A DNA stretch of 64,000 nucleotides from a virus. The translations under genes and the position numbers were made by a program. Position 1 is the first letter of the stretch. Each line of letters begins with the position of its first letter. The notes beneath the pieces were generated by a model that searched no databases, was not told the origin of the DNA, and worked only from the letters and a program-made list of their open reading frames with translations. Positions 33,770-63,529 of the stretch are shown here, piece after piece. The stretch covers positions 1-64,000 of IMG/VR virus record IMGVR_UViG_3300047157_000126; one strand, 5' to 3'.

Positions 33770-34059
33770 TCGTAAATCATCTCCTTGACTTCATCCTCAT
33801 CCTTGTCCAAGTGATACATCACCCAGTGCAATAGAGCAGTGTGGTAGTCCTGCAACTCCTTGTATGCTTCAAGGAGAAGTGGTGCGTCTTGAATCAGATT
33901 CGTGGTAGCATTTGCTCGCTCTGTGTCTGCATTCAGTTGATTGGAATCAGTTACCCAAAACATATCATAGTCACTAGGAACTGCATCATCAGTATTCCAC
34001 AATTCAACTGACGACTCATGGTAAGTATAGTGTCCTTCGTATTTGTCTGTGTCAATCAT
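33766..34059 (-). CDS. Hypothetical protein
   Basis: 97 aa; MIDTD start; A...LIQDAPLLLEA motif common in phage early proteins. Confidence 0.55.
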   Translation of the reverse strand: MIDTDKYEGHYTYHESSVELWNTDDAVPSDYDMFWVTDSNQLNADTERANATTNLIQDAPLLLEAYKELQDYHTALLHWVMYHLDKDEDEVKEMIYE

Positions 34060-35126
34060 TCAAAATCACTCGCTGGTACTAAATATTCTTCAAACACTTC
34101 ACTATCTTCTTCGTCTTTCATTTCCATGAATTGCTCTGCAAGTCTCCAAGCATCTTTCTTACGCCTTGCTAATTCACCAAACAGAACTGACTCTTGTCTC
34201 TTGAGAGACTTCTTACCATCTTTGAGTGTAGTAAATCGGTGGTCAATTGCTTCTGTAATAATATTGTATGCTTGCCAAAGAGTACCGGACATTCTACCAA
34301 CATTGTTGGAAGCCTCGTAAAGTAACTCTTCAACTTCTTTCAGTTTGTTTTCACCACGTGTATGTAATTTACCATCTTCATCTCTCTTTAGTTTGAGAGT
34401 GTCAGCCCAGTAAAGCCTCATGTCCTCTATTTCCATTGGGGTATTTAGCATGTCATCAGCCATCTCGCCCCACTCAAAGAACTCTTGGTTAATCATACCA
34501 AGTGTCTCACGAACTTCATCTACATGGTCAAACATTTTTCCTGTGTGTCTAATGTTGTGTCCAACCCCACCTCTGTTCAAAGCCCAAGTCAAAGTGTTGT
34601 TACAAACCACACGAACTGGAGTTTGTAAAATCTTAACTGCTCCAGTTCCGTCATGTGTATTACTAATTAGAATGAACTGCTGAACTTCATCAACACCGTC
34701 AAGAATAATACTATTCGGCATCTTTGCTAGAATCCATACACGTTCCCCATTACCTAGTGCCCCACACACTTCTATCTTCGCTTCTTGGTTTTGGAATATC
34801 TCATCCATAAGAGCAAAAGCGTCTACATTTTGAAGCGCTGTCCATACTCTACCAACTGCTTTACCTTTGCGAGTTAATGGAATCATGTTACCTTCCAAGT
34901 CATCTCTGAATACACCAAATGTATCAGGTACTCTAACTGGGTTACCTTCTTCATCCATTGCATACAATGGTTCTTTTCGTACTGTCCAATCTAGGTGTGC
35001 CATTTCCAAGGCTTCGACTGAAGTCATCAGACCAGAAGCCTGTTGTCCCAACCCATGCCAAGGAGTATCACCACTCCATGCTGTCATATAATTTCCTGTC
35101 GTCGTTTGTGCTATTTCGTGTGCCAT
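34056..35126 (-). CDS. DUF932-family phage/plasmid protein
   Basis: PWHGLG, LDWTV, QN.DAF, NTHDG, TPVRVVCNNTL, RHTG, GTLWQAYN. Confidence 0.85.
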   Translation of the reverse strand: MAHEIAQTTTGNYMTAWSGDTPWHGLGQQASGLMTSVEALEMAHLDWTVRKEPLYAMDEEGNPVRVPDTFGVFRDDLEGNMIPLTRKGKAVGRVWTALQNVDAFALMDEIFQNQEAKIEVCGALGNGERVWILAKMPNSIILDGVDEVQQFILISNTHDGTGAVKILQTPVRVVCNNTLTWALNRGGVGHNIRHTGKMFDHVDEVRETLGMINQEFFEWGEMADDMLNTPMEIEDMRLYWADTLKLKRDEDGKLHTRGENKLKEVEELLYEASNNVGRMSGTLWQAYNIITEAIDHRFTTLKDGKKSLKRQESVLFGELARRKKDAWRLAEQFMEMKDEEDSEVFEEYLVPASDFE

Positions 35127-44932: not shown

Positions 44933-45124
44933 ATGAGTACCACTCCTGAACCTTTTACTGAGGCTTGGCAAGTGCTAAAAGCGTACCCGCCGGAATCAAA
45001 TTTTACTGTTGAAGAAAAACAAATTGTTATGTCAACAATTTTGAAGATGATGATGAGTGGTAATACTCGTCTAGAAGAGGAGGCTGGATTGCTTTTCCAG
45101 CGATATGCTAATTTACGACAGTGA
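44933..45124 (+). CDS. AWxxLK-tag small protein
   Basis: MSTTPEPFTEAWQVLKAY; TTTATAAA box ~25 nt upstream. Confidence 0.6.
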   Translation: MSTTPEPFTEAWQVLKAYPPESNFTVEEKQIVMSTILKMMMSGNTRLEEEAGLLFQRYANLRQ

Positions 45125-45137
45125 GTTCGCACACCCC

Positions 45138-46058
45138 ATGAGTGACCCAGTAACAATTTATGAAGTGGGTCCAAGAGACGGTTTACAGTCTATTTCTAAA
45201 GAAGTTCCTACTGAGCAAAAAGCGTATTTAATTGATATGTTAATTGCAGCGGGATTGGATAAAATAGAAGTTGGAAGTTTTGTGAATCCCGCTTTGGTAC
45301 CTCAAATGAAAGATACCGCACTGGTTTTAAAGGGAATAAATCAAGAAGATAATCAAATTTCAGCATTAGTCCCAAACGCAAAAGGTTTAGAATTAGCAAA
45401 AGAAGCGGGTGTGAATCTCTTCAATATCTATCTTTCACCTTCTCCAGAGTTCAATACCCGCAATTTAGGTACTCCAAGTATTGATAGAATACTAGAAAGA
45501 TATGAAGTTGCTCTAGAGGAGGTTTTTCCTGAACAAGTGAGGTTATACATTTCTTGTGCTTTTGGTTCCGCTTTCGATGATTATGATGAGTCTCTTTTTA
45601 TTCAAATCTTAAAATGGGGGGCTGAAAACTCTTCCACAATAGTTTTAGCAGACACTACAGGAATAGCAACTCCAAAAGAAATTACCACCGTGGTAAAAAT
45701 TGCCCGCGAAATTATGCCAAATTTAGCCATTCACCTTCACAAGCCTAGTAGTAGGAAGGTTGAATTTTCGCATTTACTGGATGCTGCCTACTTATCCGGT
45801 ATTAGGGAGTTCGATACTTCTTTGGGTGGTTTAGGTGGTTGTCCTTTTGTTCCGGGTAGTTTTGGTAATTTACCAACTCGGTATTTAATTGACTGGGCTT
45901 CGGATTACGGAATTGAAATTGAACAATCTGTAGATATTGCAAAATTAGAGGCTGCTGAAATGTACCTAAAAGGAATTGTTAATATTCCGATGGCTGAAAG
46001 AGCCTATATTTATGTTTCAGGAAAACTGAGTGGTATTCGTAGAAGCCTTATCTCTTAA
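45138..46058 (+). CDS. hmgL: Hydroxymethylglutaryl-CoA lyase (DRE-TIM metallolyase)
   Basis: EVGPRDGLQ, SFVNP..VPQM.D, LADTTG, HLH, GLGGCPF.PG..GN. Confidence 0.9.
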   Translation: MSDPVTIYEVGPRDGLQSISKEVPTEQKAYLIDMLIAAGLDKIEVGSFVNPALVPQMKDTALVLKGINQEDNQISALVPNAKGLELAKEAGVNLFNIYLSPSPEFNTRNLGTPSIDRILERYEVALEEVFPEQVRLYISCAFGSAFDDYDESLFIQILKWGAENSSTIVLADTTGIATPKEITTVVKIAREIMPNLAIHLHKPSSRKVEFSHLLDAAYLSGIREFDTSLGGLGGCPFVPGSFGNLPTRYLIDWASDYGIEIEQSVDIAKLEAAEMYLKGIVNIPMAERAYIYVSGKLSGIRRSLIS

Positions 46059-47335: not shown

Positions 47336-48223
47336 ATGTTTTCCGATATAATGGTGAATTATATCTTAAAAGATGAAAATACCCTTTTAGAGCCTCCAGA
47401 AGTAAATACTTCAAAATTACCACCAGAGTTTTTTGCAGGGCACGCTTCTGAAAGATTGAGTGACCCTCTTCGTATGCATGATGAAAATGAAAGTGCAGAA
47501 GTAAAAACTAGAACTATACAAGGTTTAGTTGATGCTGGAATTATGGGACCTTTAGGTAATTATACAAAAGATGCACCTAGACATGTAGCAGTTAGAACAC
47601 ATTTTCTAGATTCTTTTAGAAATCCCATTGGGGTTAATGAAAAAGGACAACGACATTCAACTGGTAATACTATTGTAAGTATTGTAAGACCTCATAAAAA
47701 ACATAGAACCCCTCAAGTAAAAACTGTAATGCTTAGAGGTAATCATCAAAAATTTGGAAGAGGTGCTGGTCCGGGTACGATGAATGTAGACCAAGTTATA
47801 GACGCCTCACCTGAAAAAATAAATACAAATAATCCGCAAGTCGCAATAAGAAGAGCGAGAAAAGCAAAAAAGAAAAAAGCAGCAAGAGTAAGAATCCTAC
47901 CACCTGTACTACCCGGTCCGGGTTCAACTAGACCATTGGTTAAAAAAATGGTTCTAATTAAAGCACCAAAAAGAAAAATGTCTGAAGCGGCCAGACAACA
48001 TAAGTTGGCCTATGATAAAAAATACGAGTCTAGTCCTGAAAGAGTGAAATATCGAGTAGATTTGAATCGTGAGCGTAGACGCAGGGGTATTTATGGTTCG
48101 AATAATAAAAAAGATATTAGTCATACTCAAGGTGGAAAGTTTACTTTAGAAAACCAAAGTAGTAATAGGGCTAGGCATTTTAAAAATCGAGGCACACTTC
48201 GCAAGGTTAAGGTGAAGAAATGA
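47336..48223 (+). CDS. Basic protein with C-terminal HNH-like module
   Basis: YR.DLNR.RR...KDISH......LENQSSNRAR resembles small phage HNH-like proteins; preceded by VLIKA. Confidence 0.5.
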   Translation: MFSDIMVNYILKDENTLLEPPEVNTSKLPPEFFAGHASERLSDPLRMHDENESAEVKTRTIQGLVDAGIMGPLGNYTKDAPRHVAVRTHFLDSFRNPIGVNEKGQRHSTGNTIVSIVRPHKKHRTPQVKTVMLRGNHQKFGRGAGPGTMNVDQVIDASPEKINTNNPQVAIRRARKAKKKKAARVRILPPVLPGPGSTRPLVKKMVLIKAPKRKMSEAARQHKLAYDKKYESSPERVKYRVDLNRERRRRGIYGSNNKKDISHTQGGKFTLENQSSNRARHFKNRGTLRKVKVKK

Positions 48224-48390
48224 ATAGTTGCGATTGTGGTCATTGTGTGGGTATGGACACTGTTTGGAAGAAACTCTGTCCTGAAGGAAAAGCGGCAGCA
48301 AAAAGAAAGTTCAAAGTTTATCCATCCGCTTATGCTAATGGGTGGGCTGTACAATATTGTCGTGGTAAGTTTAGGGGGAAGAAAAAATGA
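48220..48390 (+). CDS. Small basic protein (DUF5872-like), not in ORF track
   Basis: MNSCDCGHC...AKRKFKVYPSAYANGWAVQYC; ATGA overlaps at both ends. Confidence 0.65.
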   Translation: MNSCDCGHCVGMDTVWKKLCPEGKAAAKRKFKVYPSAYANGWAVQYCRGKFRGKKK

Positions 48391-48548
48391 AACTTAAGAA
48401 AGATAAATGTTGTTGCGGTGGTACTAAAAAAACACCTTGTGTTTGTATGATTGAGGGTAATCAATGTTCAGTATCTTCTCCTAAGTGTCCTTGTTATGCT
48501 TTGATAGACAAGCAAAAGAACATTAAGAAAATGGTAGGCATTCTATGA
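48387..48548 (+). CDS. Small Cys-rich protein (53 aa), not in ORF track
   Basis: MKLKKDKCCCGGTKKTPCVCMIEGNQCSVSSPKCPCY...; ATGA overlaps at both ends. Confidence 0.6.
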   Translation: MKLKKDKCCCGGTKKTPCVCMIEGNQCSVSSPKCPCYALIDKQKNIKKMVGIL

Positions 48549-49261
48549 CACGATGTACCTGTCATGATGTACTCATTGTAAAAAACTTAAACCGTTGGTT
48601 TAAGGAAAAATGGGTAGATGTGTCACGTACTAAAGACGGAAAGCACCCACCGTGTGGTAGAAGCAAGGGAAAACTTTCAGGTAAAGGTTATCCTAAATGC
48701 AGACCTTCAATCAAAGTTTCAAGTAAAACACCTAAAACATCAGTTTCTATGTCATCAGGTGAGAAACAAGCAGCGACAAAAAGAAAACGTGCGAAAAAGC
48801 AAGGTGTGGATGGAAAACCAACAATAGTTAAGACAGACTACGCTATGCGAAGCAACATGAGTGCTTTTGATGCAGCGTGGAGTGTGTTGAAATCAAATAC
48901 TCTTCCTATTAGACCTAAAGTTATGCAATACGCAACCGACCAAAAGAAAACCATGAGATTAGAGCAGCCGGGTGGTGTCGCTCGAAGTGCTAGAAGAAAA
49001 CTAATGGATGAAACTCAGGCTAGAAAAAATGATAAATTTACAGATGAACCCGACATAATGAATCAGGAAGGGGATGTTCAAACTGAGTCATATGGACTGT
49101 CCCGACATGAATTGGAGGATTTACACGATGCGAGAATGACTCACGAACCTGTTTATCGTAATATGTTTTGGAACACTTTAATGAATAGGAAAGAATACGA
49201 GGCAGGTGATTTGGGACACTTTAATGAATATGATAGATTATATGAACGTGATTATGAATGA
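48545..49261 (+). CDS. DUF5872-like basic domain fused to an AWxxLK-tag module
   Basis: LNRWFKEKWVDV...CGRS...YPKCRP; internal MSAFDAAWSVLKS at 48857. Confidence 0.7.
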   Translation: MTRCTCHDVLIVKNLNRWFKEKWVDVSRTKDGKHPPCGRSKGKLSGKGYPKCRPSIKVSSKTPKTSVSMSSGEKQAATKRKRAKKQGVDGKPTIVKTDYAMRSNMSAFDAAWSVLKSNTLPIRPKVMQYATDQKKTMRLEQPGGVARSARRKLMDETQARKNDKFTDEPDIMNQEGDVQTESYGLSRHELEDLHDARMTHEPVYRNMFWNTLMNRKEYEAGDLGHFNEYDRLYERDYE

Positions 49262-49614
49262 GTTGGTTTGACACATGCGACTGTTGTACACCGATGCAAC
49301 AAGCGTCAGCAGCATTGTTAGATTCTGTTTTTGAGAAAGCAAAAAAGAAATCAAAACCATTTCACGGTTACAATCCAAACAGACATAGTAGAAGCGGTGG
49401 ACTAAATGCAAAAGGTCGAGCCAAAGCAAAAAGAGAAACAGGTGCAAACCTGAAAAGACCAGTTACTAAAAAACCAAGTTCACTAAAACCCGGTAGTAAA
49501 GCAGCAAACAGAAGAAAGTCTTTCTGTGCAAGAATGGGTGGAAGTAAAGGACCGACTAGTAAAGGCGGAAAACTAACACCGAAGGGCGCAGCGCTCAAAC
49601 GGTGGAACTGTTAA
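49258..49614 (+). CDS. Small basic protein (DUF6321-like)
   Basis: GGLNAKGR...NLKRPV...RRKSFCARM...ALKRWNC. Confidence 0.7.
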   Translation: MSWFDTCDCCTPMQQASAALLDSVFEKAKKKSKPFHGYNPNRHSRSGGLNAKGRAKAKRETGANLKRPVTKKPSSLKPGSKAANRRKSFCARMGGSKGPTSKGGKLTPKGAALKRWNC

Positions 49615-49701: not shown

Positions 49702-49773
49702 GATAAAAACCTCGGATTTTTACTCAGAAGGGTTTAAGGTGACCCCATCCGTGGCCTTTCACAAGGTGTGTAT

Positions 49774-50433
49774 ATGTCTGATACAACAGATTCCGAAATT
49801 AGATTGATGGGATTAATAATAAGTCAGTCTGCATTGATTGGGGTTGCAGTTGCTATTTTTGATTCAAAATTATGGCTAGTGAATGACGAAACATGGATGA
49901 ATGGGCTAAATTACTCAATGGGCGCTTTCGCCTTACAAGGTTTAGCATATTATCTATTCAAAATGTTCTTTGAAAGAAATCTTAGAGAACGTGCTAGGAT
50001 GACCGAGTTTCAAAGACAACATCAATCTAGGTTCAGGAATATGCAAGTTAACTTTGACCAAAGAAGGTCTGATATGGAATTAAGAAGACAAGAAATGGAA
50101 TTAGAAAAAGAATTAAGATGGATGCATGAGAATCCTGATAAGGTTATGTCACCACCTTCATTTTTAACAGAAAATAGAGATGTTAATAATATGGCTAATT
50201 TAGGATTAGATTATCATTCTACTTTTAATCCCGGCATTCCTACACACAATACTAATATACAACAACCATTAGGTTTAGGAGTCGAATCCGCTAATATGAG
50301 AGAAATTTATCAAATGACTGATTCTATGGTAAAAGATTTACCAACTCCTCCTAAAGATGGAAAGCCAACTCAAAACGCATCTGGCATGAGGTTAAAAAAG
50401 GATGGAACACCTGACCTTAGATATAAGAGTTGA
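49774..50433 (+). CDS. Membrane protein (2 TM) with coiled coil and C-terminal KKDGTPDLRY motif
   Basis: Two hydrophobic segments at the N-terminus, R/E/Q coiled coil. Confidence 0.65.
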   Translation: MSDTTDSEIRLMGLIISQSALIGVAVAIFDSKLWLVNDETWMNGLNYSMGAFALQGLAYYLFKMFFERNLRERARMTEFQRQHQSRFRNMQVNFDQRRSDMELRRQEMELEKELRWMHENPDKVMSPPSFLTENRDVNNMANLGLDYHSTFNPGIPTHNTNIQQPLGLGVESANMREIYQMTDSMVKDLPTPPKDGKPTQNASGMRLKKDGTPDLRYKS

Positions 50434-50438
50434 ACTAG

Positions 50439-50696
50439 ATGGGTAAGATATTCAAAACTCCAAAAGATGATTCAGTAGAAGAAACGCTTAGAGCCATGCA
50501 TTTGGCTAATACAGTTGATAACGTATATGAATGGGGATATGGTTGGATTAGAACTGTTGTGGTAGCAGTTGCTTCGGTTTTTATTATTAGTGCTCTTGAA
50601 GCGAATAGTGACTTTTCTTTATGGGAATCAACAGTAGAATGGGGTTATCAGCAAATAGCAGATTTTGGCTCTTGGTTAACAAATAAATTTAGTTGA
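50439..50696 (+). CDS. Small membrane protein
   Basis: TVVVAVASVFIISAL transmembrane segment. Confidence 0.65.
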   Translation: MGKIFKTPKDDSVEETLRAMHLANTVDNVYEWGYGWIRTVVVAVASVFIISALEANSDFSLWESTVEWGYQQIADFGSWLTNKFS

Positions 50697-50706
50697 TTTA
50701 AGGTAG

Positions 50707-51429
50707 GTGATTACTTTGAGTATGACTGGTAGTGTTTTAGTAGGCGCTGCGCTATGGGGTCAAAATATTTACAATGCTTGGCGCCCACGTAGTGTTGGTA
50801 TTTATGGAACAGCAATGGTAGGAAAAACCACTTTGGATTCTTATATGACAACACCGGGAGAGATGTATGATATCCCTATTGATGAAAGAACTGAACATTA
50901 TAAAATATTAACAAGATATATTTTACCTAAATCGACTAAAAAAAGAGTATCTTGGAAGGGTGAAAAGCGAGTTGTGAACTCTGCTGATATAGGTGGACAA
51001 GAAAGATATTGGAATCTTTGGATAGAAGATATGGTATATCGACAAGCGGAAGCGATAATCTATATGTTCGATGAAAGGGCTTTGAAGGGTGGTGCTGAAG
51101 GTATGGAGCAAGTTGCAGGATTCAAATATTTATGTGATGTTTTAATTTCTCGTAATTATCGTTATAGAAGCATAAAAAGTAGAATAAAAGGTAGAAAATA
51201 TTCACCTAAACTGATAATGTTAGTCGCAAACAAAGCAGATAGATTTTTTGATGACAACGCCGCTTTACTTTGGCAACAAGGTAGAATAGGAGAACATAAG
51301 GTATTTGACCCCTTTAGAGATGATTTAATTCGTTTACAAAAATCAGGAATCAGAACAAAAAGAAGTTTTATGGCTACTAGGATAGGATGGAATGTTGAAA
51401 TTACAATGTTAGATTTATTAACAATGTAG
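50707..51429 (+). CDS. Ras-superfamily (Arf-like) small GTPase
   Basis: G1 GTAMVGKTT, G2-like RT, G3 DIGGQ, G4 NKAD; hydrophobic N-terminus. Confidence 0.85.
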   Translation: MITLSMTGSVLVGAALWGQNIYNAWRPRSVGIYGTAMVGKTTLDSYMTTPGEMYDIPIDERTEHYKILTRYILPKSTKKRVSWKGEKRVVNSADIGGQERYWNLWIEDMVYRQAEAIIYMFDERALKGGAEGMEQVAGFKYLCDVLISRNYRYRSIKSRIKGRKYSPKLIMLVANKADRFFDDNAALLWQQGRIGEHKVFDPFRDDLIRLQKSGIRTKRSFMATRIGWNVEITMLDLLTM

Positions 51430-51491
51430 TGTGTACCTTTCAAGTGACCTCATCAGTAACCTTTTTGATATGGGTGGTGGTGCGCCAACTA

Positions 51492-51677
51492 ATGGCAAGA
51501 GTGAATAATGAGACCACTCTTGTGTCAACTGGAGGAGGCTCTAATAGTCTAAGAACAACTGTTCCGATGTGGATAATTGAACAATTTAAACTTACAGCAG
51601 GAGAAAAACTAAGTTGGAAGTTTGATGTTAATGAAGATGGAGAATTGTGTGTAAAGGTGACTCCTCAACAGAAGTGA
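51492..51677 (+). CDS. AbrB/MazE-like DNA-binding protein
   Basis: SLRTTVPMWIIEQFKLTAGEKLSW; GGTGG RBS. Confidence 0.75.
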   Translation: MARVNNETTLVSTGGGSNSLRTTVPMWIIEQFKLTAGEKLSWKFDVNEDGELCVKVTPQQK

Positions 51678-51681
51678 TAAT

Positions 51682-52635
51682 ATGGTATCTAATTATATCC
51701 CCGGTTATAATAATCAACAACAAATTAATTCTTTAGGTCATTCTAACGAAACAGCATTAATGGCTCTTGCGGCACAAGGTAATCCTCAATTAAATAGAGC
51801 AGTTTTAATGGAACAAGCCGCCGCTCAACGTTCTATGCAAGAAATGGCTTCTCAAAAAAACCTAGAAGTCCCTAAAGTTAATTTTTATCCATCAACTCAT
51901 GGTAATTCTAGAAAAGCCAGAAAACAAGATATACGTCAAGCGTATAAATTATTAAGGCCAGCAAAAAGAAGTCTAATTTCTCCAGCAAGACTTTTTGGTA
52001 GTAAATATAGGTACAATAAGCAATCACATGTTTGTGTGGTAGATGGTTGTGATTGTAAAGAATTAATTCAATACGATAATCTTTACGAGAAAATATGTGA
52101 CGATGAAACTGGTAGAAGTCTCTGGGATATGTATTGGCAAAATCCAGTTACTGGACAGGCTGAAGCGTTTTTAGCGATGGATAAAGTAACTAGTGGTAGA
52201 AAAATGAGGGGTACTTATTGTCCTGAACATTTACATTTATTTCACCTTCTTTGTAAATGGGAAACTGAAGAAGAAAGAGAATATGAAATGAATCCTAATC
52301 GTTTACGTGATAAAGTAAAACAAGGTGTTTCTATTGTTACTGTTCCTGTTAGTGTAATGCAAAAAAATGATGCAGATACACCTTTGATGTTATCGAAGTA
52401 TGAGCCTTTTTTTGAATTGTTAGAAAAAGACGCTAGAGCCTATGAAGGAATAAATATCACTCATTATAAAAACCCAGAAACAGGAATAAACGATATTACT
52501 ACAGTAACATTTGATTTGCGAATATTCCAAAAAGAATTGTTGGAAATAAATCAACCAACACCTGCTTTTCAACAAATTATTAATCAGCAACCTAATAACA
52601 CGTCCCCCATACCGAATACACAAGGGGTGAATTAG
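51682..52635 (+). CDS. Hypothetical protein with Cys/His cluster
   Basis: 317 aa; CVVDGC...YCPEH; Q/N-rich ends. Confidence 0.6.
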   Translation: MVSNYIPGYNNQQQINSLGHSNETALMALAAQGNPQLNRAVLMEQAAAQRSMQEMASQKNLEVPKVNFYPSTHGNSRKARKQDIRQAYKLLRPAKRSLISPARLFGSKYRYNKQSHVCVVDGCDCKELIQYDNLYEKICDDETGRSLWDMYWQNPVTGQAEAFLAMDKVTSGRKMRGTYCPEHLHLFHLLCKWETEEEREYEMNPNRLRDKVKQGVSIVTVPVSVMQKNDADTPLMLSKYEPFFELLEKDARAYEGINITHYKNPETGINDITTVTFDLRIFQKELLEINQPTPAFQQIINQQPNNTSPIPNTQGVN

Positions 52636-52637
52636 TT

Positions 52638-53285
52638 ATGGTAGGAATATTTGGAAATCCACATCAAACTCCACAATCCACATCTTCTCTCAATTTATCA
52701 CAAACTGGGGCACCGTTTGGTCAACAACATCAGCAACAATTCGGTTTTGGACAACAACCAGTAGCACAGGGTTTTGTAGCGGGGCTTGGAATGCAAGACC
52801 AATATAATCAATTTAATCAATTTGCTCAACAACCTGTAGCCCCTCCTTCTGAAACAGAGATTTTGATGGCTATGCTTGAAACATTAAATCCTGTTGAAAA
52901 GTTTATTGTAAGCGCACAAATGCCTGTTATGATTGAAATGTTATCTAATATTTCTACATTCTCTTTCCTAAATGTATTAAAAAATGCTAAATTTAAACTA
53001 GACGAGGAAACTGGTACTCTTAGTTTAGACGTTACAACTCTTCCTTCTGATTTACAAACATTATCTGCTGAAAATATTGTCGCTCAATTAAGTAATTTAC
53101 AAAACCAATCAACAGCAATTATTCAACAAGCAGAGATGAGAAGACAACAAGTTTTGGCTATGTCACAACAATCTATGTTGCAGGGCGCGTTAGGTGCGGC
53201 GCTTGAAAATCCCGGTATGATGGAAAACGTTGGTAATGCTGTTGGTAGTACTGCTCGTAGTTTATTATTCGGAGGTAGAGCATAA
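52638..53285 (+). CDS. Gln/Phe/Gly-rich hypothetical protein
   Basis: 215 aa; FGQQ low-complexity N-terminus. Confidence 0.6.
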   Translation: MVGIFGNPHQTPQSTSSLNLSQTGAPFGQQHQQQFGFGQQPVAQGFVAGLGMQDQYNQFNQFAQQPVAPPSETEILMAMLETLNPVEKFIVSAQMPVMIEMLSNISTFSFLNVLKNAKFKLDEETGTLSLDVTTLPSDLQTLSAENIVAQLSNLQNQSTAIIQQAEMRRQQVLAMSQQSMLQGALGAALENPGMMENVGNAVGSTARSLLFGGRA

Positions 53286-53530
53286 TGATGTCAGGAATAC
53301 CAAACCCAATTAATCAAATGAATGAAATGGCATTAGGAATGTGGAGTCCACAACGCAGTGTAATAATTGATATGATAATGGTTCAATTAATTTCTTTGAT
53401 TGTGATGATGGTAGCAGTTTTATTATTTAGAGGTGGAGACTTATCAACTAACGAGGCTACATTTTTCGTCTTTGGATTATTCTCTTCGCTTGTGTTTTTA
53501 AGTGCGGTTTACGCAAGAATAACACAATAG
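53285..53530 (+). CDS. Small 2-TM membrane protein (holin-like topology)
   Basis: Two hydrophobic helices in 81 aa. Confidence 0.6.
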   Translation: MMSGIPNPINQMNEMALGMWSPQRSVIIDMIMVQLISLIVMMVAVLLFRGGDLSTNEATFFVFGLFSSLVFLSAVYARITQ

Positions 53531-53571: not shown

Positions 53572-54258
53572 ATGGACGAAGAGGCGCGTATTACAAAACG
53601 CTCTTGTTCCTTTTGTCAACATCCAGATAGAGATGGACTCGAAGATGATTTACTTGCGGGTAATATAACTCCTAAACAAATGGACCAAGAGATGGGTTGG
53701 CGAGCGAATACTTCTGATAGACATTTTAGAAATCATATGGGAGAATACCACATGGGTGCTAATCCTAGATGTGTTATTTGCTCCCATGATGACAGGTCTG
53801 CTTTTGAGGCTAGATTTTTTACTGATGGGTCAGAATCGGAGGCTATTGCTCAGGAATTAGATATTGCTGAGAATACTGTGTATCATCACATGAAGCACCA
53901 CTTTCAACCGTTGGTTAAGAAATCAGCAGCAGTTGAGGTCGCAATTACAGTTGGTCAAGAACTTGGAATACTTAGAAACAATGTCGAAAAACTAAATGAT
54001 AAACTTTCAGAATTACTTTCTGAGGGTAGTGTTCATGAAGATGGTTTTGTTAGAGATGCTGTATCATTACATAAAGAAGTAAGAGAATCAATAAAAGACT
54101 TAGTAAAATTCAATGATACTTGGGGCAGTGATACTACAGAGACTACTGTAAATCAAACAATAAATATTTTAAAAGTAGAATTAGCCAAGGAATCTCCTGA
54201 ATCTTGGAAGAGAATTAAATCTCAATTAATCGAATCTGCTGGAGGAGATATAGCGTGA
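53572..54258 (+). CDS. Duplicated CxxCxH/HTH protein, candidate terminase small subunit
   Basis: Two repeats CSFCQHPDR...HFRNH and CVICSHDDR...HMKHH, then a coiled coil; upstream of terL. Confidence 0.45.
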   Translation: MDEEARITKRSCSFCQHPDRDGLEDDLLAGNITPKQMDQEMGWRANTSDRHFRNHMGEYHMGANPRCVICSHDDRSAFEARFFTDGSESEAIAQELDIAENTVYHHMKHHFQPLVKKSAAVEVAITVGQELGILRNNVEKLNDKLSELLSEGSVHEDGFVRDAVSLHKEVRESIKDLVKFNDTWGSDTTETTVNQTINILKVELAKESPESWKRIKSQLIESAGGDIA

Positions 54259-54653
54259 TTATAATTGATGAGTTATTTGTTTCATCACATCCCGGTTACA
54301 GACTATTACATGATAACATAATCATTGATGAAAAAAGACTACCTGTGTTTTTAGATTATATTTCTTTAGTGTTCCAAAAGTTTAACTTTTATGTTGAAAA
54401 AGAGAATCTACAATTAGTTTTTGGTAGTGCTATTTTAGAAGTGATTAGGTATCTAAAAACTCTTTGTGAATCTGATGAACCTGAAATTGTTTTTGATACA
54501 AGAAGTAAGTTAAGAGAGATTTTACCAAGAATAAGAGGTGAATTAAAATTAATGGGAAGTTGTTTTCTTGACCCACCTAGCATCCAACAGTTCTATGAAG
54601 ACATAGCCTCTGCGTTACAGCGCTCTAGTGAGTATCTTATGGGGGATTATTGA
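54255..54653 (+). CDS. Hypothetical protein
   Basis: 132 aa, GTGA overlap, GGAGG RBS. Confidence 0.55.
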   Translation: MIIIDELFVSSHPGYRLLHDNIIIDEKRLPVFLDYISLVFQKFNFYVEKENLQLVFGSAILEVIRYLKTLCESDEPEIVFDTRSKLREILPRIRGELKLMGSCFLDPPSIQQFYEDIASALQRSSEYLMGDY

Positions 54654-55885
54654 TGACTGAAGGTATGATGGGTAGAGGTTCTGATACCAGAATGTACGCT
54701 CCTCGTTCAGAATCGTCTATTATGTTCAGAAATAATGACGGAGATGGAAGTTATAATCCCGGTGACCCTCGTTATGAAGATATGGAAAAAGAGAAGAAAA
54801 GAAAAGAAAAGGAGAAACACGATAAAAAACTTCGTAGAAGAAAACATATCAAAGTGAAACCGGGTATTTTAAGAAATGTTGGGGACGAAGAAGAAGATGA
54901 AGAAAGAGAAGATGACTCCGACAAATATGATGCAGACAGAGAGACTCACTTACAAACAGGTGCTGCGGGTAATTTTGGCTTTTTATCTAGTTTAGCAGGT
55001 GGAGCAAAAGGCCCCGGCGTTGGTAGAGGTGAACTAATTTCTACTGGCGAACCTATGGCTGCTGCTTGGTCTGAATTAAGGAAAGCAAAAACTAAGAAAC
55101 AGAGAGAAAAACAAAGTAAAAAAGAGTCTAGAAAAAAAGGTCGTCCAAGCACTGGTGAGTTCAAAAAACCAAAAGGTGGCTATTCCCCTAAGTCTGCAAC
55201 ATCTAGAAGAGCAAAAGCACTGTCAAGAAGTTTAGGTGGTTCTAAGAAAACTGGGTTAGGTAGAGCACACTTGGCAGTTGAGATGTCTCACCGTGGGCTG
55301 AAAACAAAACAACCTATGAGATTAGAAGACCCTAGAAAATATGCAAGTTTTATGGCAAGACAAGGTTCTATGGCACAACAAGGCCAAGTAAGAACCCCAG
55401 CATCACCTACACCAGCATCAGTAGTTGGCTTTTCAGGAAGAGTACCTAAACCTAAACTAAAACCAATGAGACCTCCACCAATTCAACCACCAAGAATCGC
55501 TGGTGCTCCACATTTGGCTATGGGTGGTGGGGCTTCTGGTATGCCAGCACCCCCACCACCAATGCCTGTTATGACAAGTGAAGATGTGTTTATTGGCTCA
55601 GAATTACAAAAAAGAAGAGGTGGTTTTGATTGGGCTACCGTACAAGAATTAAGACAATTACTCAATAGAACTAGAAGAATCCTTAGAGAAAAAGAAAGTA
55701 AGAAGAAAGGATATGGAAATGCTGATACAAGTGGTGCTGGGAGTAATCTACCAAAACACCCTAGTAATGCCCCTAAATCTACAAATAGAAATGAAGGGGC
55801 TACAGAAGACGCAAAGACAGACCCTCGCCACTTCGGAATTGATACAGTCGGTCATGATGTTGGGCGAGGGGGCGCGACACCATGA
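54650..55885 (+). CDS. Low-complexity charged/Pro-rich protein with internal tag variant
   Basis: EPMAAAWSELRKA at ~55049-55087; K-rich and P-rich tracts. Confidence 0.65.
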   Translation: MMTEGMMGRGSDTRMYAPRSESSIMFRNNDGDGSYNPGDPRYEDMEKEKKRKEKEKHDKKLRRRKHIKVKPGILRNVGDEEEDEEREDDSDKYDADRETHLQTGAAGNFGFLSSLAGGAKGPGVGRGELISTGEPMAAAWSELRKAKTKKQREKQSKKESRKKGRPSTGEFKKPKGGYSPKSATSRRAKALSRSLGGSKKTGLGRAHLAVEMSHRGLKTKQPMRLEDPRKYASFMARQGSMAQQGQVRTPASPTPASVVGFSGRVPKPKLKPMRPPPIQPPRIAGAPHLAMGGGASGMPAPPPPMPVMTSEDVFIGSELQKRRGGFDWATVQELRQLLNRTRRILREKESKKKGYGNADTSGAGSNLPKHPSNAPKSTNRNEGATEDAKTDPRHFGIDTVGHDVGRGGATP

Positions 55886-58190: not shown

Positions 58191-58946
58191 ATGTCAAATC
58201 TTTTTGGCTCTTATCTAGGACAAGTATATGGAGATAGATATACTAGAGATAAAAGAAAAGAGATAGACCCTATAGCAACTGCCGCAGAAAAGAAAAGATT
58301 TGATAGAACACAAAGAAATTTAGATAGATTGGCTGTAGGCGCTGGCGCATTATCTGCCGCCCATAATTTTACTAGAAATTTAACAGAGGGTAAATTTAGA
58401 CCGATTTCCGCTTTAGGTTCTGGACAAGCCGCTTACCAAGGTATAAAAGGAACTTTAAATCCTCTTGCTGCTGGAATTGATGATTTTAGAATTAAAAGAA
58501 GAATTAGAAGTACACTGTCACCGCGCTCAGGTTCTGCTACTGCTTCAAAAACATATGTAGAACCAGCAACAGAATATGCGGGAGTAGACCCTGCTATGAT
58601 TAGTGAACGGAGACAAATCAACCCAATAAGAACTCCTTCTTCAGAAGAGCAAAGTTTAGTAGGTGTGTCACCACAACAAAGGGTATTTACACAAAGAGTT
58701 GCAGGTGGGCCTGTAAAAGTTAAACCAAAAGCAGAACCTTCTCCTGAACGTAAAATGACGGAAGAGCAAGTAAAAGTGCTGGCTTCTAATGTTGCCCCTC
58801 CTACTGCTCAATCTAATCTTAATCAGTTTACAGAAAGAGATATGGTGAAAGTCATAAATCAAGATGATGCTGAAGACGCAAGAGAAGAAAAAAGATTGAA
58901 TGCTAAAAACTTAGACGGTTCTCAACAAATACAAGGGAATGTGTGA
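58191..58946 (+). CDS. Hypothetical protein
   Basis: 251 aa; frame is open upstream through ATC at 58122 (IGKVLILKQGG). Confidence 0.6.
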   Translation: MSNLFGSYLGQVYGDRYTRDKRKEIDPIATAAEKKRFDRTQRNLDRLAVGAGALSAAHNFTRNLTEGKFRPISALGSGQAAYQGIKGTLNPLAAGIDDFRIKRRIRSTLSPRSGSATASKTYVEPATEYAGVDPAMISERRQINPIRTPSSEEQSLVGVSPQQRVFTQRVAGGPVKVKPKAEPSPERKMTEEQVKVLASNVAPPTAQSNLNQFTERDMVKVINQDDAEDAREEKRLNAKNLDGSQQIQGNV

Positions 58947-60442
58947 TATTCATGATTGACGATAAAGGTCAAGACATGCAAGATTTCATCAAACAGATGG
59001 ATAGAGAAATGAGTAAAAAATCATTTCAGTATTTTTTTACTGAGATTTTAAAATTTGATTTAAATTGGCATCACGAACAATGGGAGAAGGGTCTTGCTGG
59101 AAGTAGATATTATTGTGTAAAAGCGTCAAGAGACCACGGAAAATCTGTTTTCTTTATGAGTTATGCATTATGGTTAGCAGCATTTAATCCTAATACCCAC
59201 ATTATGATTTTCTCACACTCTTTAGAACAGACTCTTGAGCATATGAGATTTATTAGAAATAACATAGATATGGCAGATTGTTTAAGAGATTTAAAACCTC
59301 AAGGAAAACCTTGGGCTAAATCATATTTCGAGTTTACAAATGGTAGTCGTCTTATGGCTAAGTCAGTTGGTGGTGCTACTCGTGGTTTCCACCCTGACGT
59401 TGTTGTTTGCGACGATATTCTTTGGGGAACTAGTGCTGGTGAATTAGCCAGAACTGCTGATTGGTTTTATGGTGTTTTGTTACCAGTTCTTCACCACAGT
59501 TCTCGTTTGATGATGGTTGGTACACCATTTAGTTACAACGATTTGTATGCGGAATTAGAAAAGAAAGATACCTTTACTGTAGAAACATATCCCGCGATAA
59601 ATCAAGAAGGTGAAGCATTATGGCCCGCTAGATGGAATCTTGAAGCGTTAGATGAAAGACGACTTTCTATGCCAGCAATACAGTTTTCTCGTGAATATCT
59701 ATGTGAACCTATTCACGATGTTGCTAGTATGTTTCCTAATGATATACTAGAAAAAGCCAGAGACCCTGAACTTGTTTTAATTCCGAGAGCAGATACCGCT
59801 TACAATGAGGAGGGTGAGCCTGATGGGATTTACGGGCAACATTTCTTTGGTTGGGACCCTGCGATTTCTTCTGATAAAAACGCTGACTTTACAGCGATGT
59901 TAGGTCTTAGAATAAAACCAGAAAATGACGGTATCAAAGAAATTGTGCATGTAGTACATCAAAAAGGTATGTCTAGTATGGCGCAAAAAAGACAAATTAT
60001 TGCTATAAATAACAAGTTTATGCCAGAGTTGATAGAATTAGAAGGTAATAATTTCCAGCGTATGTTGGCGACTGAACTAAAAGAAATGGCATCTGATATT
60101 CCGGTTAAGACTTTCATGACAACGAAACAAAAGAAGGAGACTATATTCATGTCGTTATTATTGGCATTTGAGCAAGGCCAAATAAAAACGCCTTATGGTA
60201 ATGAAGAATCTCGTAAGTTTACTCATACTCTTGAACAAGAATTAAACAGATTTGGTATGCAGAAAAATGGTAGACTAGAATCTGTGGGTGTTCATGACGA
60301 CTTAGCAATGGGTTTGGCTCTTGCTAATTTTGCAACTAAAGAGTTCAAAGGTAGTGTTGTGCTTCTTGATGATATTTTACCCGGCTTTGATGATTGGCAC
60401 GCAGGTAGAAAACATCGCAATAGTGGTTGGATGATACCATAG
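58943..60442 (+). CDS. terL: Terminase large subunit
   Basis: ASRDHGKS Walker A, VVCDD Walker B, VGTP, FSREYLCEP, GWDPA..DFTA, ELEGN, HDDLAM. Confidence 0.95.
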   Translation: MIFMIDDKGQDMQDFIKQMDREMSKKSFQYFFTEILKFDLNWHHEQWEKGLAGSRYYCVKASRDHGKSVFFMSYALWLAAFNPNTHIMIFSHSLEQTLEHMRFIRNNIDMADCLRDLKPQGKPWAKSYFEFTNGSRLMAKSVGGATRGFHPDVVVCDDILWGTSAGELARTADWFYGVLLPVLHHSSRLMMVGTPFSYNDLYAELEKKDTFTVETYPAINQEGEALWPARWNLEALDERRLSMPAIQFSREYLCEPIHDVASMFPNDILEKARDPELVLIPRADTAYNEEGEPDGIYGQHFFGWDPAISSDKNADFTAMLGLRIKPENDGIKEIVHVVHQKGMSSMAQKRQIIAINNKFMPELIELEGNNFQRMLATELKEMASDIPVKTFMTTKQKKETIFMSLLLAFEQGQIKTPYGNEESRKFTHTLEQELNRFGMQKNGRLESVGVHDDLAMGLALANFATKEFKGSVVLLDDILPGFDDWHAGRKHRNSGWMIP

Positions 60443-60572: not shown

Positions 60573-61796
60573 ATGTGGGCGAGCGCTTTTTTGGAAGACT
60601 CTTTTTTTGTTAAAGCGGAAAGCAACGAAGAAGTTGTTGAGGTCACTCAAGTGAAAAAATTTTTTTCTAATACTGGCGAAGGTTGGTTTGAAAGTCATCT
60701 AGGTGTTACAGCGAATGAGTTCGTTTCTAGACTTAGAAAAATGCGAAGGAAAAACAAAAATGTTAAGCATGAAATAGATGACATAATTCAAGATGTCAGA
60801 GCATTAAAAAAATTAGAAGTTGAAAGCACATTATCACAAATACCTTGGGCTAATGAAAGATATGATACACTTAGAGGATTAGGGCTTTCAGATAGAGATT
60901 TAAAATCACTTAGAAGATTTTCAGATTCAAGAAAAACTGGTTTAATTAATGCTTGTCAATTATGGGAACAAGCAGATACTTCTCTCAAGACTCTCGATAG
61001 TTTTGAAGATGTATGGGGGCAACATGAAAATCAAACATGGGCTAATGCTATGCAAAATAAAAAAGATGCAAGAAAAATGTGGAAAACAAGTTTACATCAA
61101 ATAGATAAATTAAACTCAAAAGATAGGGAAACTATAGAAAAAGCCAGTTTGGTTTTAACAGAGAGAGGACCTATGAGTAGTAGAGCCATATTTGAACATC
61201 TAAGTGAAAACAATGTTGTACACAAAAGTATGACCAGTAACAAGTTATCAAAATTAATTTCTATGTATGGGGAAGAACTAGACATTACTGCTGGTGCTTC
61301 TAGAGGGACTTTTGTAAAGATGGATAAAAATGGTTTAATTCTAAAAGACCCTTTTGCTTACGCAGCGGGCTTTTTAGACGCTGACGGCTACATCACAATT
61401 ACAGGTAGGGGTGAAGCAAGAGCAGGTTTTGTCGCTACTGGTGATAGAGGTAGAGCACACTGTGAACAATTACACAAAACTTTAGAATGTGGGGTTTTAC
61501 AATTAGACCAAAAAGTCCACAAAAACTCCACTAGAAGTCAACATAGATTACAATTTTATTCAAAAGGTGATGTAGAAAAACTACTAAAAATGATTTTACC
61601 ACATTTACAAATGAAAGATACCCAAGCAAAGGCTGTCTTGCAATATCTCCAAGAGGAAGACCCTCTTCGTAAGACCGAGTTGTTGCGTGTGGTTAGATAC
61701 AATAATTGGAAAGACGACACTCAAAAAGCAGAAAACTTACTATCTCAATGGGAATGCTCCGTAGACGATATTAGTAAATGGTCGGAGGGAATATAA
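60573..61796 (+). CDS. LAGLIDADG endonuclease domain fused to a helical/HTH N-terminal region
   Basis: YAAGFLDADGYI...ILPHLQMK..QA; between terL and portal. Confidence 0.8.
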   Translation: MWASAFLEDSFFVKAESNEEVVEVTQVKKFFSNTGEGWFESHLGVTANEFVSRLRKMRRKNKNVKHEIDDIIQDVRALKKLEVESTLSQIPWANERYDTLRGLGLSDRDLKSLRRFSDSRKTGLINACQLWEQADTSLKTLDSFEDVWGQHENQTWANAMQNKKDARKMWKTSLHQIDKLNSKDRETIEKASLVLTERGPMSSRAIFEHLSENNVVHKSMTSNKLSKLISMYGEELDITAGASRGTFVKMDKNGLILKDPFAYAAGFLDADGYITITGRGEARAGFVATGDRGRAHCEQLHKTLECGVLQLDQKVHKNSTRSQHRLQFYSKGDVEKLLKMILPHLQMKDTQAKAVLQYLQEEDPLRKTELLRVVRYNNWKDDTQKAENLLSQWECSVDDISKWSEGI

Positions 61797-63529
61797 TGGC
61801 TGATGATGATAGTAGAGTTTCTAGATTTATCAGTGCTCTTTCTAGCCCTTTCAAAAGAAGGACTACACCACAACCTCAAATGCCAATGTTGACTACTGGT
61901 ATTCAAGAACCAGTATTAGCACAAGGAATCACACTTCCTGCTCTTTATGCTGTATCTCGTGAAAATTTAATTCTTAGGACGGTTTTAGCAAAATTAAAAC
62001 AAGAGATATTCCGAAGGGGGTATTACTTTGAAAAGAAGTTTGAAACTAAATGTGTAGACTGTGGTGAAGAATATCAACATTCAGTGGATATGTGCAAAGC
62101 CTGTGGGGGTGAAGTAAGGACTCCTGATGTAGATGAGGCTGTATATCCACGTTGGTTATTAAAACAAGAGAACTCTATGGAACAATCTTTTATGCACATT
62201 TTACAAGAAGTAGAAGATGATTTGAATATAGTCGATGATGCTTTCTTAATTTTAGTTAAAGAGTACTTTGTAGACCCAGATACTGGAGAAATACAATTTT
62301 ACAGAGTAAAAGAAATCATAAGAGGTGACCCTATCTTTATGAGAATAGTAGCAGATAAGAGAGGAGTAAGAGGTGGTAGATACAAAGTTTGTGCTATTCA
62401 CAGAGACCAAATTAATTATCCCGGTCAAGATGATGCGTGTCAGGTGTGTGGTTCAAAAATGGAAGATGCACATTATATCAATATGGCTGGTTCTGGAAAA
62501 AATCAATACTATCTTAAGGGAGAAGTTATACACATTTCAAAATATAATCCTAGTAAATTGTATGGAAAATCTCCAGTTAACACTATGTGGAGACAAGCAA
62601 TGTCTCTAACCGCTATGGATAATTACATCTACACCGCTTATCAGAAAAGAAGAATACCAAAAGGAATTATTTCTGTAACTACAGATAATCTAGAATCTAT
62701 GAAATCTTTCTGGAAGTCTGTTGACGAAAAAATGGAAAGAGACCCTCACTATGTTCCTAAAGTGGGTATTGAGAGTTCCACTGGAAGAGGGGGTGTGAAT
62801 TGGGTTAAATTCATGGACACTCTTGAGGAAATGCAGTATATGGCTGTAAGAGACGAAATAAGAAATCGTATAGCAGCATACTTTGGTGTATCATCAGTAT
62901 TTATGATAGATAATGGTAAGTCTGGTGGTTTGAATAATGAGGGTATGCAAATACTAGTAACTAATCGAGCAGTTGAGTTTGGGCAAAAAGTGTATACTGA
63001 AGTTTTATTCCCAAGAATGTTAAGAGAAATGAATGTACATGATTGGAAACTTGCTCTTTATCCTAATGAAGAAGAAGATGAAATCACAAGATTAAGAAGA
63101 GATGAGATGGAAGCAAATCTTGCTCAAAGAATGATGATGTTAGGTTACCAACCTGAATTGTTGGAAGAAGGAAAAAGAGATATTAGGTTTGTCTATAAAA
63201 AATTAGAAACAGGTCAACAACCCGGTGGAGCACCTCCTCCGGGTGGAGCACCTCCTCCGGGTGGAGCACCTCCTGCTGGTGGAGCACCTCCTGCTGGTGT
63301 TCCTCCGGGTGTAATGCAACAAGTAGGAAGAGGTATGCCTCCGGGTGTTGTTAATCCGGGTGGAGAAGGTGTTGGTTTGAGAAATAGAGGACCCGCTAGA
63401 CCTGAACAAAGAGTTTCAGGAGGTGCTGGCTCTCCTTTTTCTAATGTACAACAAAGAGGCCCACAACAAAGACCTGTTGAAAGAGCACAAAGAGGTGTTT
63501 CTGAGGCAAATCGCCCTCGTGGAGCATAA
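61796..63529 (+). CDS. Portal protein with Zn-ribbon insertions and a Pro/Gly-rich tail
   Basis: DLNIVDDAFL, EVIH...LYGKSP, PKGII, RIAAYFGV; CxxC pairs; follows terL. Confidence 0.85.
   Translation: MADDDSRVSRFISALSSPFKRRTTPQPQMPMLTTGIQEPVLAQGITLPALYAVSRENLILRTVLAKLKQEIFRRGYYFEKKFETKCVDCGEEYQHSVDMCKACGGEVRTPDVDEAVYPRWLLKQENSMEQSFMHILQEVEDDLNIVDDAFLILVKEYFVDPDTGEIQFYRVKEIIRGDPIFMRIVADKRGVRGGRYKVCAIHRDQINYPGQDDACQVCGSKMEDAHYINMAGSGKNQYYLKGEVIHISKYNPSKLYGKSPVNTMWRQAMSLTAMDNYIYTAYQKRRIPKGIISVTTDNLESMKSFWKSVDEKMERDPHYVPKVGIESSTGRGGVNWVKFMDTLEEMQYMAVRDEIRNRIAAYFGVSSVFMIDNGKSGGLNNEGMQILVTNRAVEFGQKVYTEVLFPRMLREMNVHDWKLALYPNEEEDEITRLRRDEMEANLAQRMMMLGYQPELLEEGKRDIRFVYKKLETGQQPGGAPPPGGAPPPGGAPPAGGAPPAGVPPGVMQQVGRGMPPGVVNPGGEGVGLRNRGPARPEQRVSGGAGSPFSNVQQRGPQQRPVERAQRGVSEANRPRGA
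63224..63295 (+). repeat. 18-bp tandem repeat x4 encoding GGAPP(P/A)
   Basis: GGTGGAGCACCTCCT(CCG/GCT) x4 in the portal C-terminus. Confidence 0.9.

Follow-up and report, generated by a model that had tools for sequence, protein, structure and literature searches.

An apparently virus-specific small GTPase in a colinear gene cassette of tailed archaeal viruses, a candidate for membrane-acting progeny release

The question raised by the locus analyzed here is what role a small guanosine triphosphatase (GTPase) plays in a tailed archaeal virus. The locus lies in a 64,000-nucleotide stretch of DNA (positions 1 to 64,000 of IMG/VR virus record IMGVR_UViG_3300047157_000126), referred to below as the window. 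It consists of seven open reading frames (ORFs), A to G, which occupy positions 49768 to 53530 of the plus strand with spacings of 5, 10, −1, 4, 2, and −1 bases. An initial annotation, made from the sequence alone, had described an Arf-like GTPase gene within a cluster of membrane protein genes, and all seven ORFs were present on the plus strand at the positions that it gave. The GTPase is the predicted product of gene C (50707 to 51429, plus strand), a 240-residue, divergent member of the Ras superfamily with a modeled N-terminal amphipathic or hydrophobic helix.

Gene C was found to be a core gene of this virus lineage. IMG/VR contained 105 relatives of the window copy of C, and the best 80 of these 105 loci were examined by tblastn with the window proteins. 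Genes A, B, C, E, F, G, H, J, and K were present in 80/80 loci, D in 70, I in 52, and the gene for the large terminase (TerL) in 77, with the order A-B-C-(D)-E-F-G-H-(I)-J-K-TerL constant over the 80 loci. Since these loci had been picked by their GTPase, the test was repeated from the terminase. Among the best 80 of 184 TerL relatives, 39 loci extended at least 9.5 kb upstream of TerL, and these carried C, B, E, F, G, H, J, and K in 39/39 cases, A in 37, D in 31, and I in 26. The other 41 TerL loci had less upstream DNA; three of them, with 8.6 to 9.2 kb, also carried C. In this set of viruses (group 1), C lies 7.7 to 9.7 kb upstream of TerL. The median identity over the 80 loci was 72% for C, 75% for TerL, and 45 to 65% for A, B, E, F, and G, making C the best-conserved gene of the cassette. 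The initial annotation had tied C to the transmembrane (TM) genes, and that tie held: the genes are colinear from either anchor, the relatives of C are nearly all viral or metagenomic, and a sporadic acquisition from a host does not account for this pattern. The cassette, comprising C, two or three small membrane proteins (A, B, and G), E, and F, is inherited as a tightly packed colinear unit.

Analysis of conserved motifs indicated that C is, by its sequence, a small GTPase that belongs to the Ras superfamily and binds guanine nucleotides. The G1, G3, and G4 motifs had been described as intact, and their key residues were invariant in 20 relatives of 68 to 80% identity: G34, G39, K40, and T41 of the P-loop, D94, G96, and G97 of G3, and NKAD (residues 175 to 178) of G4. 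The G5-like MATR (residues 222 to 225) and a TTPGEM stretch following helix 1 were also invariant in these relatives. The G1 consensus GxxxxGK[ST] was present in all unique C sequences of group 1 and of two of the divergent groups described below (71, 2, and 54 sequences in groups 1, 2, and 3, respectively). G4 was NKAD in 71/71 group 1 sequences and NK[YHF]D in 54/54 group 3 sequences, and more distant members had the canonical SA[KR] at G5. The Arf/Sar-type DxGGQ reported for C holds for the window, which has DIGGQ at switch II, but not for the family, in which the residue following GG (residue 98 in the window) varies: group 1 has Q in 55 of 71 unique sequences, E in 12, and H and D in one each (not found in 2); group 3 has Q in 30/54 and E in 24/54 sequences; and both group 2 sequences have H. 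The Q of DxGGQ is therefore common rather than fixed. The recurrence of the Q/E exchange after DxGG in two separate groups is unusual for a small GTPase. The N terminus of C is hydrophobic, as previously noted, with a best 19-residue Kyte-Doolittle (KD) value of 1.2, under the TM threshold of 1.6. Residues 3 to 25 formed a helix in the structural model, with a hydrophobic moment of 0.36. The N-terminal helix was hydrophobic and of sub-TM strength throughout groups 1 to 3, with moments of 0.36 to 0.44.

Structure prediction was performed with AlphaFold. A first model, based on an alignment of 20 sequences, had a predicted local distance difference test (pLDDT) value of 61.8 and Foldseek template-modeling scores of 0.3 to 0.45 and was superseded by an AlphaFold2 model based on 27 sequences, down to 24% identity, with a pLDDT of 90.3 and a predicted template-modeling score of 0.86. 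Foldseek matched this second model to at least 500 PDB chains at an E value of <1e-3, and all 50 listed chains were Ras-superfamily or G-alpha GTPases. The small-GTPase fold of C is thus certain. The highest Z scores in the VIA search were obtained for Arf6 (17.4 and 17.1), Sar1 (17.0), and SRbeta (16.2, with others at 15.0 and 14.2), followed by an Asgard Rag-like GTPase (15.6), Arl2 (15.5), G-alpha (15.3), and the best Rab (14.4). The predicted fold leans moderately to the Arf/Sar/SRbeta side, by about 3 Z units over Rab.

Assignment of C to a subfamily was less straightforward. The window copy reached no Pfam cutoff (Roc, 20.9 bits for a cutoff of 27; Ras, 15.9 for 21.6; Gtr1_RagA, 12 for 22) and did not match PF00025 (Arf) at an E value of ≤1. 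Among 27 family members, Roc was matched weakly by 17 and Arf by 6 (Arf at an E value of ≤0.1), and 7 matched PF01926 weakly (best E value, 4.8e-4), the family under which the archaeal GTPase ArvA is annotated. Of 10 divergent members scanned, just P0203 exceeded any cutoff (Arf, 36.2 bits for 22.3; SRPRB, 26.2 bits); this sequence, which the Joint Genome Institute (JGI) names signal recognition particle (SRP) receptor beta, has a profile E value of 3.6e-4 and is a singleton from a contig of 1.7 kb. Searches of PDB sequences gave chance-level results only, both with the single sequence (Arl6; E value, 0.77) and with the profile (E values of 0.22 to 0.73, including 8oun_A). The cellular references were 15 small GTPases from one Asgard metagenome-assembled genome (MAG), of which 8 were Arf-like and 7 Ras-like (typed by Pfam; 10 scanned). 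The viral C profile scored 68 against the Arf-like and 76 against the Ras-like references in hhalign. In an IQ-TREE phylogeny with the same 15 references, the viral sequences formed one clade (94/88), which joined P0202 and then P0203 (97/94) and fell outside the Ras-like clade (95/90), with an Arf-like backbone that was not resolved. The description of C as Arf-like is therefore partly supported: Arf6, Sar1, and SRbeta as top structural matches and the N-terminal helix speak for it, but no Pfam cutoff is reached, the Ras-like references score as high in hhalign as the Arf-like ones, and the Q of DxGGQ varies. Sequence comparison leaves the subfamily unsettled.

The distribution of the family was investigated in several databases. 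A word-indexed search with C returned 427 relatives, of which the 120 listed were 69 to 98% identical to C and about 238 residues long; some members carry the JGI name "GTPase SAR1 family protein." Searching 1.84 billion (1.84e9) protein representatives with the C profile gave 83 matches at an E value of ≤1e-3, none of which was an ordinary cellular Arf or Ras protein. Three C loci (L166, L167, and L168) were found in 185,579 species genomes (one genome each), on magrovirus-like contigs of 8 to 16 kb assigned to Asgard (Promethearchaeati), Maricaulis, and Parvibaculum MAGs. These loci are read as misbinned viral DNA because they are short contigs in unrelated MAGs, and they probably represent a binning artifact in public genomes. 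A tblastn search of INPHARED with C gave no match, and IMG/VR yielded no P0129-like or P0159-like relatives. Judged by these searches, the C family is virus specific.

Three further groups of cassettes (groups 2, 3, and 4) encode GTPases that are 29 to 36% identical to the window copy of C. Group 2 comprised 4 loci, group 3 comprised 140 IMG/VR relatives (of which 80 were kept), and group 4 comprised 11 metagenome loci. In group 2, a chaperonin gene is followed by a small gene and then by genes for a 1-TM protein, a small protein, the GTPase, and the E-like and F-like proteins, in that order. The group 3 genes follow those for the prohead protease, the major capsid protein, two small proteins, a 2-TM protein, and a small hydrophobic protein; the GTPase and the E-like and F-like proteins come next, followed by further genes, the tail tube, and the tape measure. 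In group 4, the GTPase gene is preceded, in order, by genes for a 2-TM protein, a small protein, and an additional 250-residue protein and followed by those for the E-like and F-like proteins and a 2-TM protein; the cassette is flanked by a glycosyltransferase-like gene upstream and recombinase-like genes downstream (named by eye from N-terminal sequences). Profile-profile comparison by hhalign (numbers after the letters denote groups) linked the GTPases of the groups with E values of 1.9e-29 to 1.5e-46. The E proteins were also linked (E1-E2, 1.8e-39; E4-E1, 1.9e-31; E2-E3, 5.7e-9; E1-E3, 3.9e-5), as were the F proteins (F2-F3, 2.7e-10; F4-F1, 7.3e-8; F1-F3, 2.3e-4), the A proteins of groups 1, 2, and 4 (A1-A2, 6.4e-9; A4-A1, 1e-11), and the G proteins of groups 1 and 4 (G4-G1, 3.5e-7). 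The link for B was weak (B4-B1, 4.6e-5). The group 1 A protein had no significant hhalign match to group 3, and B had no link to group 2 or 3; the A and B proteins of group 3 are positional analogues only. These profile comparisons indicate homology of C, E, and F throughout the groups and, between groups 1 and 4, of all six proteins A, B, C, E, F, and G. Gene D, present in group 1 and absent from groups 2 to 4, is a group 1 addition. Since the inner order is kept while the neighborhood changes, the locus behaves as a self-contained functional cassette. Loci L081 to L084 (group 2) and L269 and L278 (group 4) lie near chaperonin and/or serine-recombinase-like genes and have no recognizable structural genes within 10 kb. 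These group 2 and group 4 neighborhoods recall the "group D" elements, for which the account given by Philosof et al. 2017 (PMC5434244) reports that no morphogenetic block was found.

The products of the genes surrounding C were examined individually. Gene A (49768, or 49774, to 50433, plus strand) encodes a 221-residue membrane protein in which the TM part is followed by a charged helical region, residues 69 to 125 being 46% charged. It had been annotated as a 2-TM protein; one TM segment is clear (residues 13 to 31; KD, 2.2), but the second, near residue 50, is weak (KD, 1.06). The single TM segment proposed for the 85-residue product of gene B (50439 to 50696, plus strand) was found at residues 35 to 53, and the two proposed for the 81-residue product of gene G (53285 to 53530, plus strand) were found at residues 30 to 48 and 58 to 76. 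Gene D (51429 to 51677, with a likely start at 51492, plus strand) encodes a predicted small DNA-binding protein of the SpoVT/AbrB/MazE type. Its annotation as AbrB-like was partly supported, by the family more than by the window copy: PF04014 (SpoVT/AbrB/MazE) was matched by 7 of 9 members at an E value of ≤0.01, one of the nine (L023, 25.2 bits) exceeding the cutoff of 24.7, but the window copy remained below it, at 19.0 bits.

Gene E (51682 to 52635, plus strand) encodes a 317-residue protein with a Cys/Cys...Cys/His (CCCH-type, presumably zinc-binding) core. The window copy has cysteines at positions 118, 123, 125, 139, 180, and 191. In an alignment of 22 sequences from three groups, C118, G122, G172, T178, Y179, and C180 were invariant and H183 was conserved in at least 90% of the sequences, in agreement with its annotation as a Cys/His protein; the second cysteine lies 3 to 5 residues past the first. 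This CCCH arrangement is typical of a zinc site and presumably of the zinc type in E. No match to E was found in Pfam, PHROGs, PDB sequences (profile search E values of 0.83 to 1.2, chance level), or the ESM Atlas. A multimer prediction combining C, residues 60 to 300 of E, GTP, and Mg scored 0.01 for a mark of 0.32, a value that we read neither way on binding. Gene F (52638 to 53285, plus strand) encodes a 215-residue protein in which low-complexity, Gln/Gly/Met-rich ends flank a central domain conserved in the alignment (approximately residues 70 to 185). It contains 13.5% Gln overall, with 17 Q and 7 F among its first 70 residues, as expected from its description as FG/Q rich, and had no match in Pfam, PHROGs, PADLOC, or the ESM Atlas. 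Nothing under an E value of 0.01 was found in PHROGs for the nine proteins of the cassette region, and none of 10 proteins matched the PADLOC defense models at an E value of ≤0.01. The initial annotation had recognized no lysis genes. Scanning of 29 window proteins (the 9 of the cassette region and 20 others) likewise revealed no lysis-related Pfam family and neither a holin family nor an enzyme that degrades the wall or envelope; the small TM proteins of the cassette are A, B, and G.

Hints of expression were sought upstream of and within the cassette. A TATA-like box, TTTAAGGTGAC, at positions 49733 to 49743 of the plus strand, approximately 30 to 40 nucleotides upstream of gene A, is a possible archaeal promoter of the cassette. 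The pattern TTTA[AT]N2-3TGAC occurred in 26 of 70 unique upstream sequences, in comparison to a mean of 0.1 in shuffled sequences; as the upstream sequences are related, this reflects conservation and not independent recurrence. One metatranscriptomic library contained contigs matching positions 49855 to 50593, 51503 to 51764, 51808 to 52212, and 52392 to 52817 (0 to 17 differences), which fall on A/B, D/E, E, and E/F, respectively. Two RNA runs with almost identical contigs and depths, probably the same data, were counted as this one library. All reads were available as contigs, giving neither transcript ends nor expression levels, and uncovered parts carry no meaning. A virome run covered nearly all of the examined stretch with 0 to 2 differences. 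Downstream of the cassette, an oligo-dT RNA run showed an approximately 1,000-fold contig depth at positions 54265 to 54915, on the Lys/Glu-rich, low-complexity start of the ORF at 54650 to 55885, most likely due to cross-mapping of unrelated transcripts.

The source record of the window comprises 81,728 bases and is classed as linear and approximately 75% complete. The window contains a replication arm on the minus strand, with genes for a Cpn60/TCP-1 chaperonin (4939 to 6441), a family B DNA polymerase (PolB; 12347 to 14749), and an SNF2 helicase (30843 to 32903), and a second arm on the plus strand, with genes for TerL (58943 to 60442) and the portal (61778 to 63529) toward its end. The closest full-length matches of PolB among named phages were from haloarchaeal tailed viruses (22 to 24% identity). 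The proposed context of a tailed archaeal virus is thus confirmed by both this gene set and the PolB matches. An unsplit PolB together with an SNF2 helicase and a chaperonin is the set given for group A magroviruses in the description by Philosof et al. 2017 (PMC5434244). On the basis of this gene set, the virus is a putative group A magrovirus. The replication arm also encodes a DUF932 protein (34056 to 35126; E value, 8.1e-46), and the plus-strand arm encodes an HMGL-like protein of the HMG-CoA lyase family (45105 to 46058; PF00682; E value, 1.2e-18). Directly upstream of the cassette, positions 47336 to 49614 encode very basic (20 to 24% K+R), partly Cys-rich small proteins, one of which is a DUF5872 protein (48545 to 49261); their order and position differ among relatives, and they lie downstream of TerL in some loci. 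The cassette is followed by a gene for a 228-residue protein (53572 to 54258) with Cys pairs and helix-turn-helix matches (HTH_20/GerE) slightly under the cutoffs, which is conserved like E (median identity of 67%, 80/80 loci).

We propose, with a probability of roughly 40%, that A to G form a GTP-switched, membrane-acting late cassette that serves the release of progeny. The cassette would be a virus-specific, self-contained membrane module built around a GTP switch. As happens in Arf and Sar1, GTP binding would release the N-terminal helix of C for insertion into the host membrane; A and B may anchor or activate C at the membrane, and E and F could act as effector, GTPase-activating protein, or assembling partner. 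Expressed with the late genes, the cassette would reshape or break the cytoplasmic membrane, most likely for the release of progeny virions from a host lacking a peptidoglycan wall. The membrane-remodeling, egress, or superinfection-exclusion function suggested by the initial annotation is likewise read from gene content and position. Several points weigh against progeny release. No homology or experiment links any cassette protein to lysis or membrane remodeling, and searches of Pfam, PHROGs, and PADLOC gave no match for A, B, E, F, or G. Late expression is read from gene position only, and the RNA-library contigs, which are compatible with transcription of the cassette, could also originate from contaminating DNA carried over. 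The hydrophobic moment of the N-terminal helix is only moderate (0.36 to 0.44). Owing to the Q/E/H variation at the catalytic position, switch kinetics may differ between lineages. Finally, the group 3 cassette is located within the head-tail structural module, which would suit a role in morphogenesis just as well.

A stronger version of the progeny-release proposal would make the cassette the egress machinery that has been missing from the picture of tailed archaeal viruses: a Sar1/Arf-like GTPase, recruited by the virus's own membrane proteins, would cooperate with a zinc protein and a Gln-rich protein that self-associates to vesiculate or tear the host membrane in a GTP-timed manner. We regard this version as doubtful. 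If true, it would constitute a mode of lysis with no relation to either the holin-endolysin systems or the Sulfolobus virus pyramids, as well as an independent viral invention of coat-like, GTPase-driven membrane remodeling in the archaeal world.

Other explanations account for parts of the evidence. C and its partners may organize or check head-tail or tail assembly, perhaps at the membrane, since the group 3 cassette has the major capsid protein gene on one side and the tail tube and tape measure genes on the other, the group 1 cassette shares a strand block with TerL and the portal, and C is conserved about as well as TerL (72% versus 75%). Such a morphogenesis factor is nonetheless unlikely: head-tail assembly would not be expected to involve two or three membrane proteins plus a helix that seeks the membrane, the cassette also occurs beside chaperonin or recombinase-like genes with no recognizable structural genes within 10 kb, and no similarity to any PHROG structural family was detected. 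The combination of membrane proteins with a switch GTPase would also suit an alteration of the host membrane or envelope that does not end in lysis, for superinfection exclusion, shedding of receptors as vesicles, or a change in transport, and ArvA-type GTPases are described as driving vesicle shedding in archaea (PMC10927574). We consider this takeover of the host surface rather improbable, as exclusion genes are usually variable accessories, whereas the cassette is core (39/39) and strongly conserved, and no defense or antidefense family was matched.

Two further proposals concern C itself. By analogy to SRbeta, which is among the top structural matches (Z scores of 16.2, 15.0, and 14.2), C could help to insert or sort the membrane proteins that the virus itself encodes; P0203, the most distant profile match, passes the SRPRB and Arf cutoffs and joins the viral clade at 97/94. 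Against this role, P0203 has a profile E value of just 3.6e-4 and is a singleton whose contig measures 1.7 kb. Moreover, no SRalpha, SRX, or longin-type protein and no SRP component was detected by Pfam among the neighbors, and the N terminus of C is not a TM anchor by hydropathy (KD of 1.2 for a threshold of 1.6), so that we give this targeting role very little credence. Recent and sporadic capture of a host GTPase with no functional tie to its neighbors, which the JGI name of some members might suggest, is already contradicted and hardly credible. C is linked to its neighbors in 80/80 and 39/39 loci, has no cellular relative at an E value of ≤1e-3 except marginal singletons, and matches public genomes only on three short contigs of Asgard, Maricaulis, and Parvibaculum MAGs for which misbinning is likely. 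The two Asgard sets, Arf-like and Ras-like, resemble one another much more (hhalign score of 175) than they resemble the viral family (68 and 76, respectively).

The literature search uncovered no description of a small GTPase from magroviruses or from any other tailed virus of prokaryotes, in line with the earlier remark that Ras-superfamily GTPases are unusual in head-tail viruses. The main texts of the magrovirus papers examined and of a survey of archaeal Caudoviricetes contained no mention of a GTPase, Ras, or Arf bearing on C; the supplementary gene tables may list the gene, because the JGI calls some members "GTPase SAR1 family protein." For egress of tailed archaeal viruses, a review states, in its treatment of the subject, that "the main players ... 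are still completely uncharacterized" (PMC10791045), and the same review reports that the archaeal small GTPase ArvA drives vesicle formation (PMC10791045). A core, virus-only GTPase locked to membrane proteins is a concrete, clonable candidate for the exit of tailed archaeal viruses. As a rare Ras-superfamily switch in a prokaryotic virus, it bears on the reach of GTPase-driven membrane remodeling outside eukaryotes. The host group consists of abundant ocean archaea, and the cassette is a good candidate for acting on or breaking their membrane.

In comparison to known systems, C resembles Arf, Sar1, and SRbeta by its predicted fold, its G1, G3, and G4 motifs, and the N-terminal helix preceding strand 1. 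We take the DxGG-type G3 of C, with Q or H, to correspond to that of Arf (DxGGQ) and Sar1 (DxGGH). C differs from these cellular proteins of approximately 180 residues by insertions of about 50 and 20 residues, by scores below the Pfam cutoffs, by the replacement of Q by E in 12/71 and 24/54 relatives, and by its restriction to viruses. Virus-encoded small GTPases with the same fold include the Rab of mimivirus (PDB 5xc5; Z score, 14.3). The Rab/Ras genes of giant viruses are close copies of host Rabs, whereas C belongs to a deep, virus-only family in a tailed archaeal virus. MglA/MglB pairs similarly associate a small GTPase of the prokaryotic world with a conserved, possibly regulatory neighbor, but the neighbors of C had no Roadblock/LC7 match.

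Phage holin-type lysis cassettes can be located upstream of the terminase genes, as in lambda. Like the lambda cassette, that of group 1 lies upstream of the terminase, in a presumably late block, and it has small membrane proteins with charged tails (A, B, and G). It differs from holin-type cassettes by the lack of an endolysin or holin family match among the scanned proteins and by the presence of a small GTPase; we know of no holin system that contains one, and none was found in the literature. The holin traits used for this comparison are the general ones outlined in PMC10791045. Holin-like genes have been proposed as lysis candidates in Adrikavirales (PMC11706807). ArvA-ArvB-ArvC (OapABC) of Euryarchaeota combines ArvB and the zinc ribbon protein ArvC with a GTPase that carries an amphipathic helix and is described as genetically required for vesicle formation (PMC10927574). 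Both systems would thus place a small GTPase with an N-terminal amphipathic helix beside a zinc-type protein and a third protein; unlike the cassette, ArvABC has no TM partners comparable to A, B, and G as described (PMC10927574). OapB (PF09846) and OapC (PF09845) had no match in the 81.7-kb record at an E value of ≤1, although both were found in the Haloferax volcanii control, and the likeness is therefore architectural rather than a demonstrable homology. On these architectural grounds, ArvABC appears to be the nearest known functional analogue of the viral cassette.

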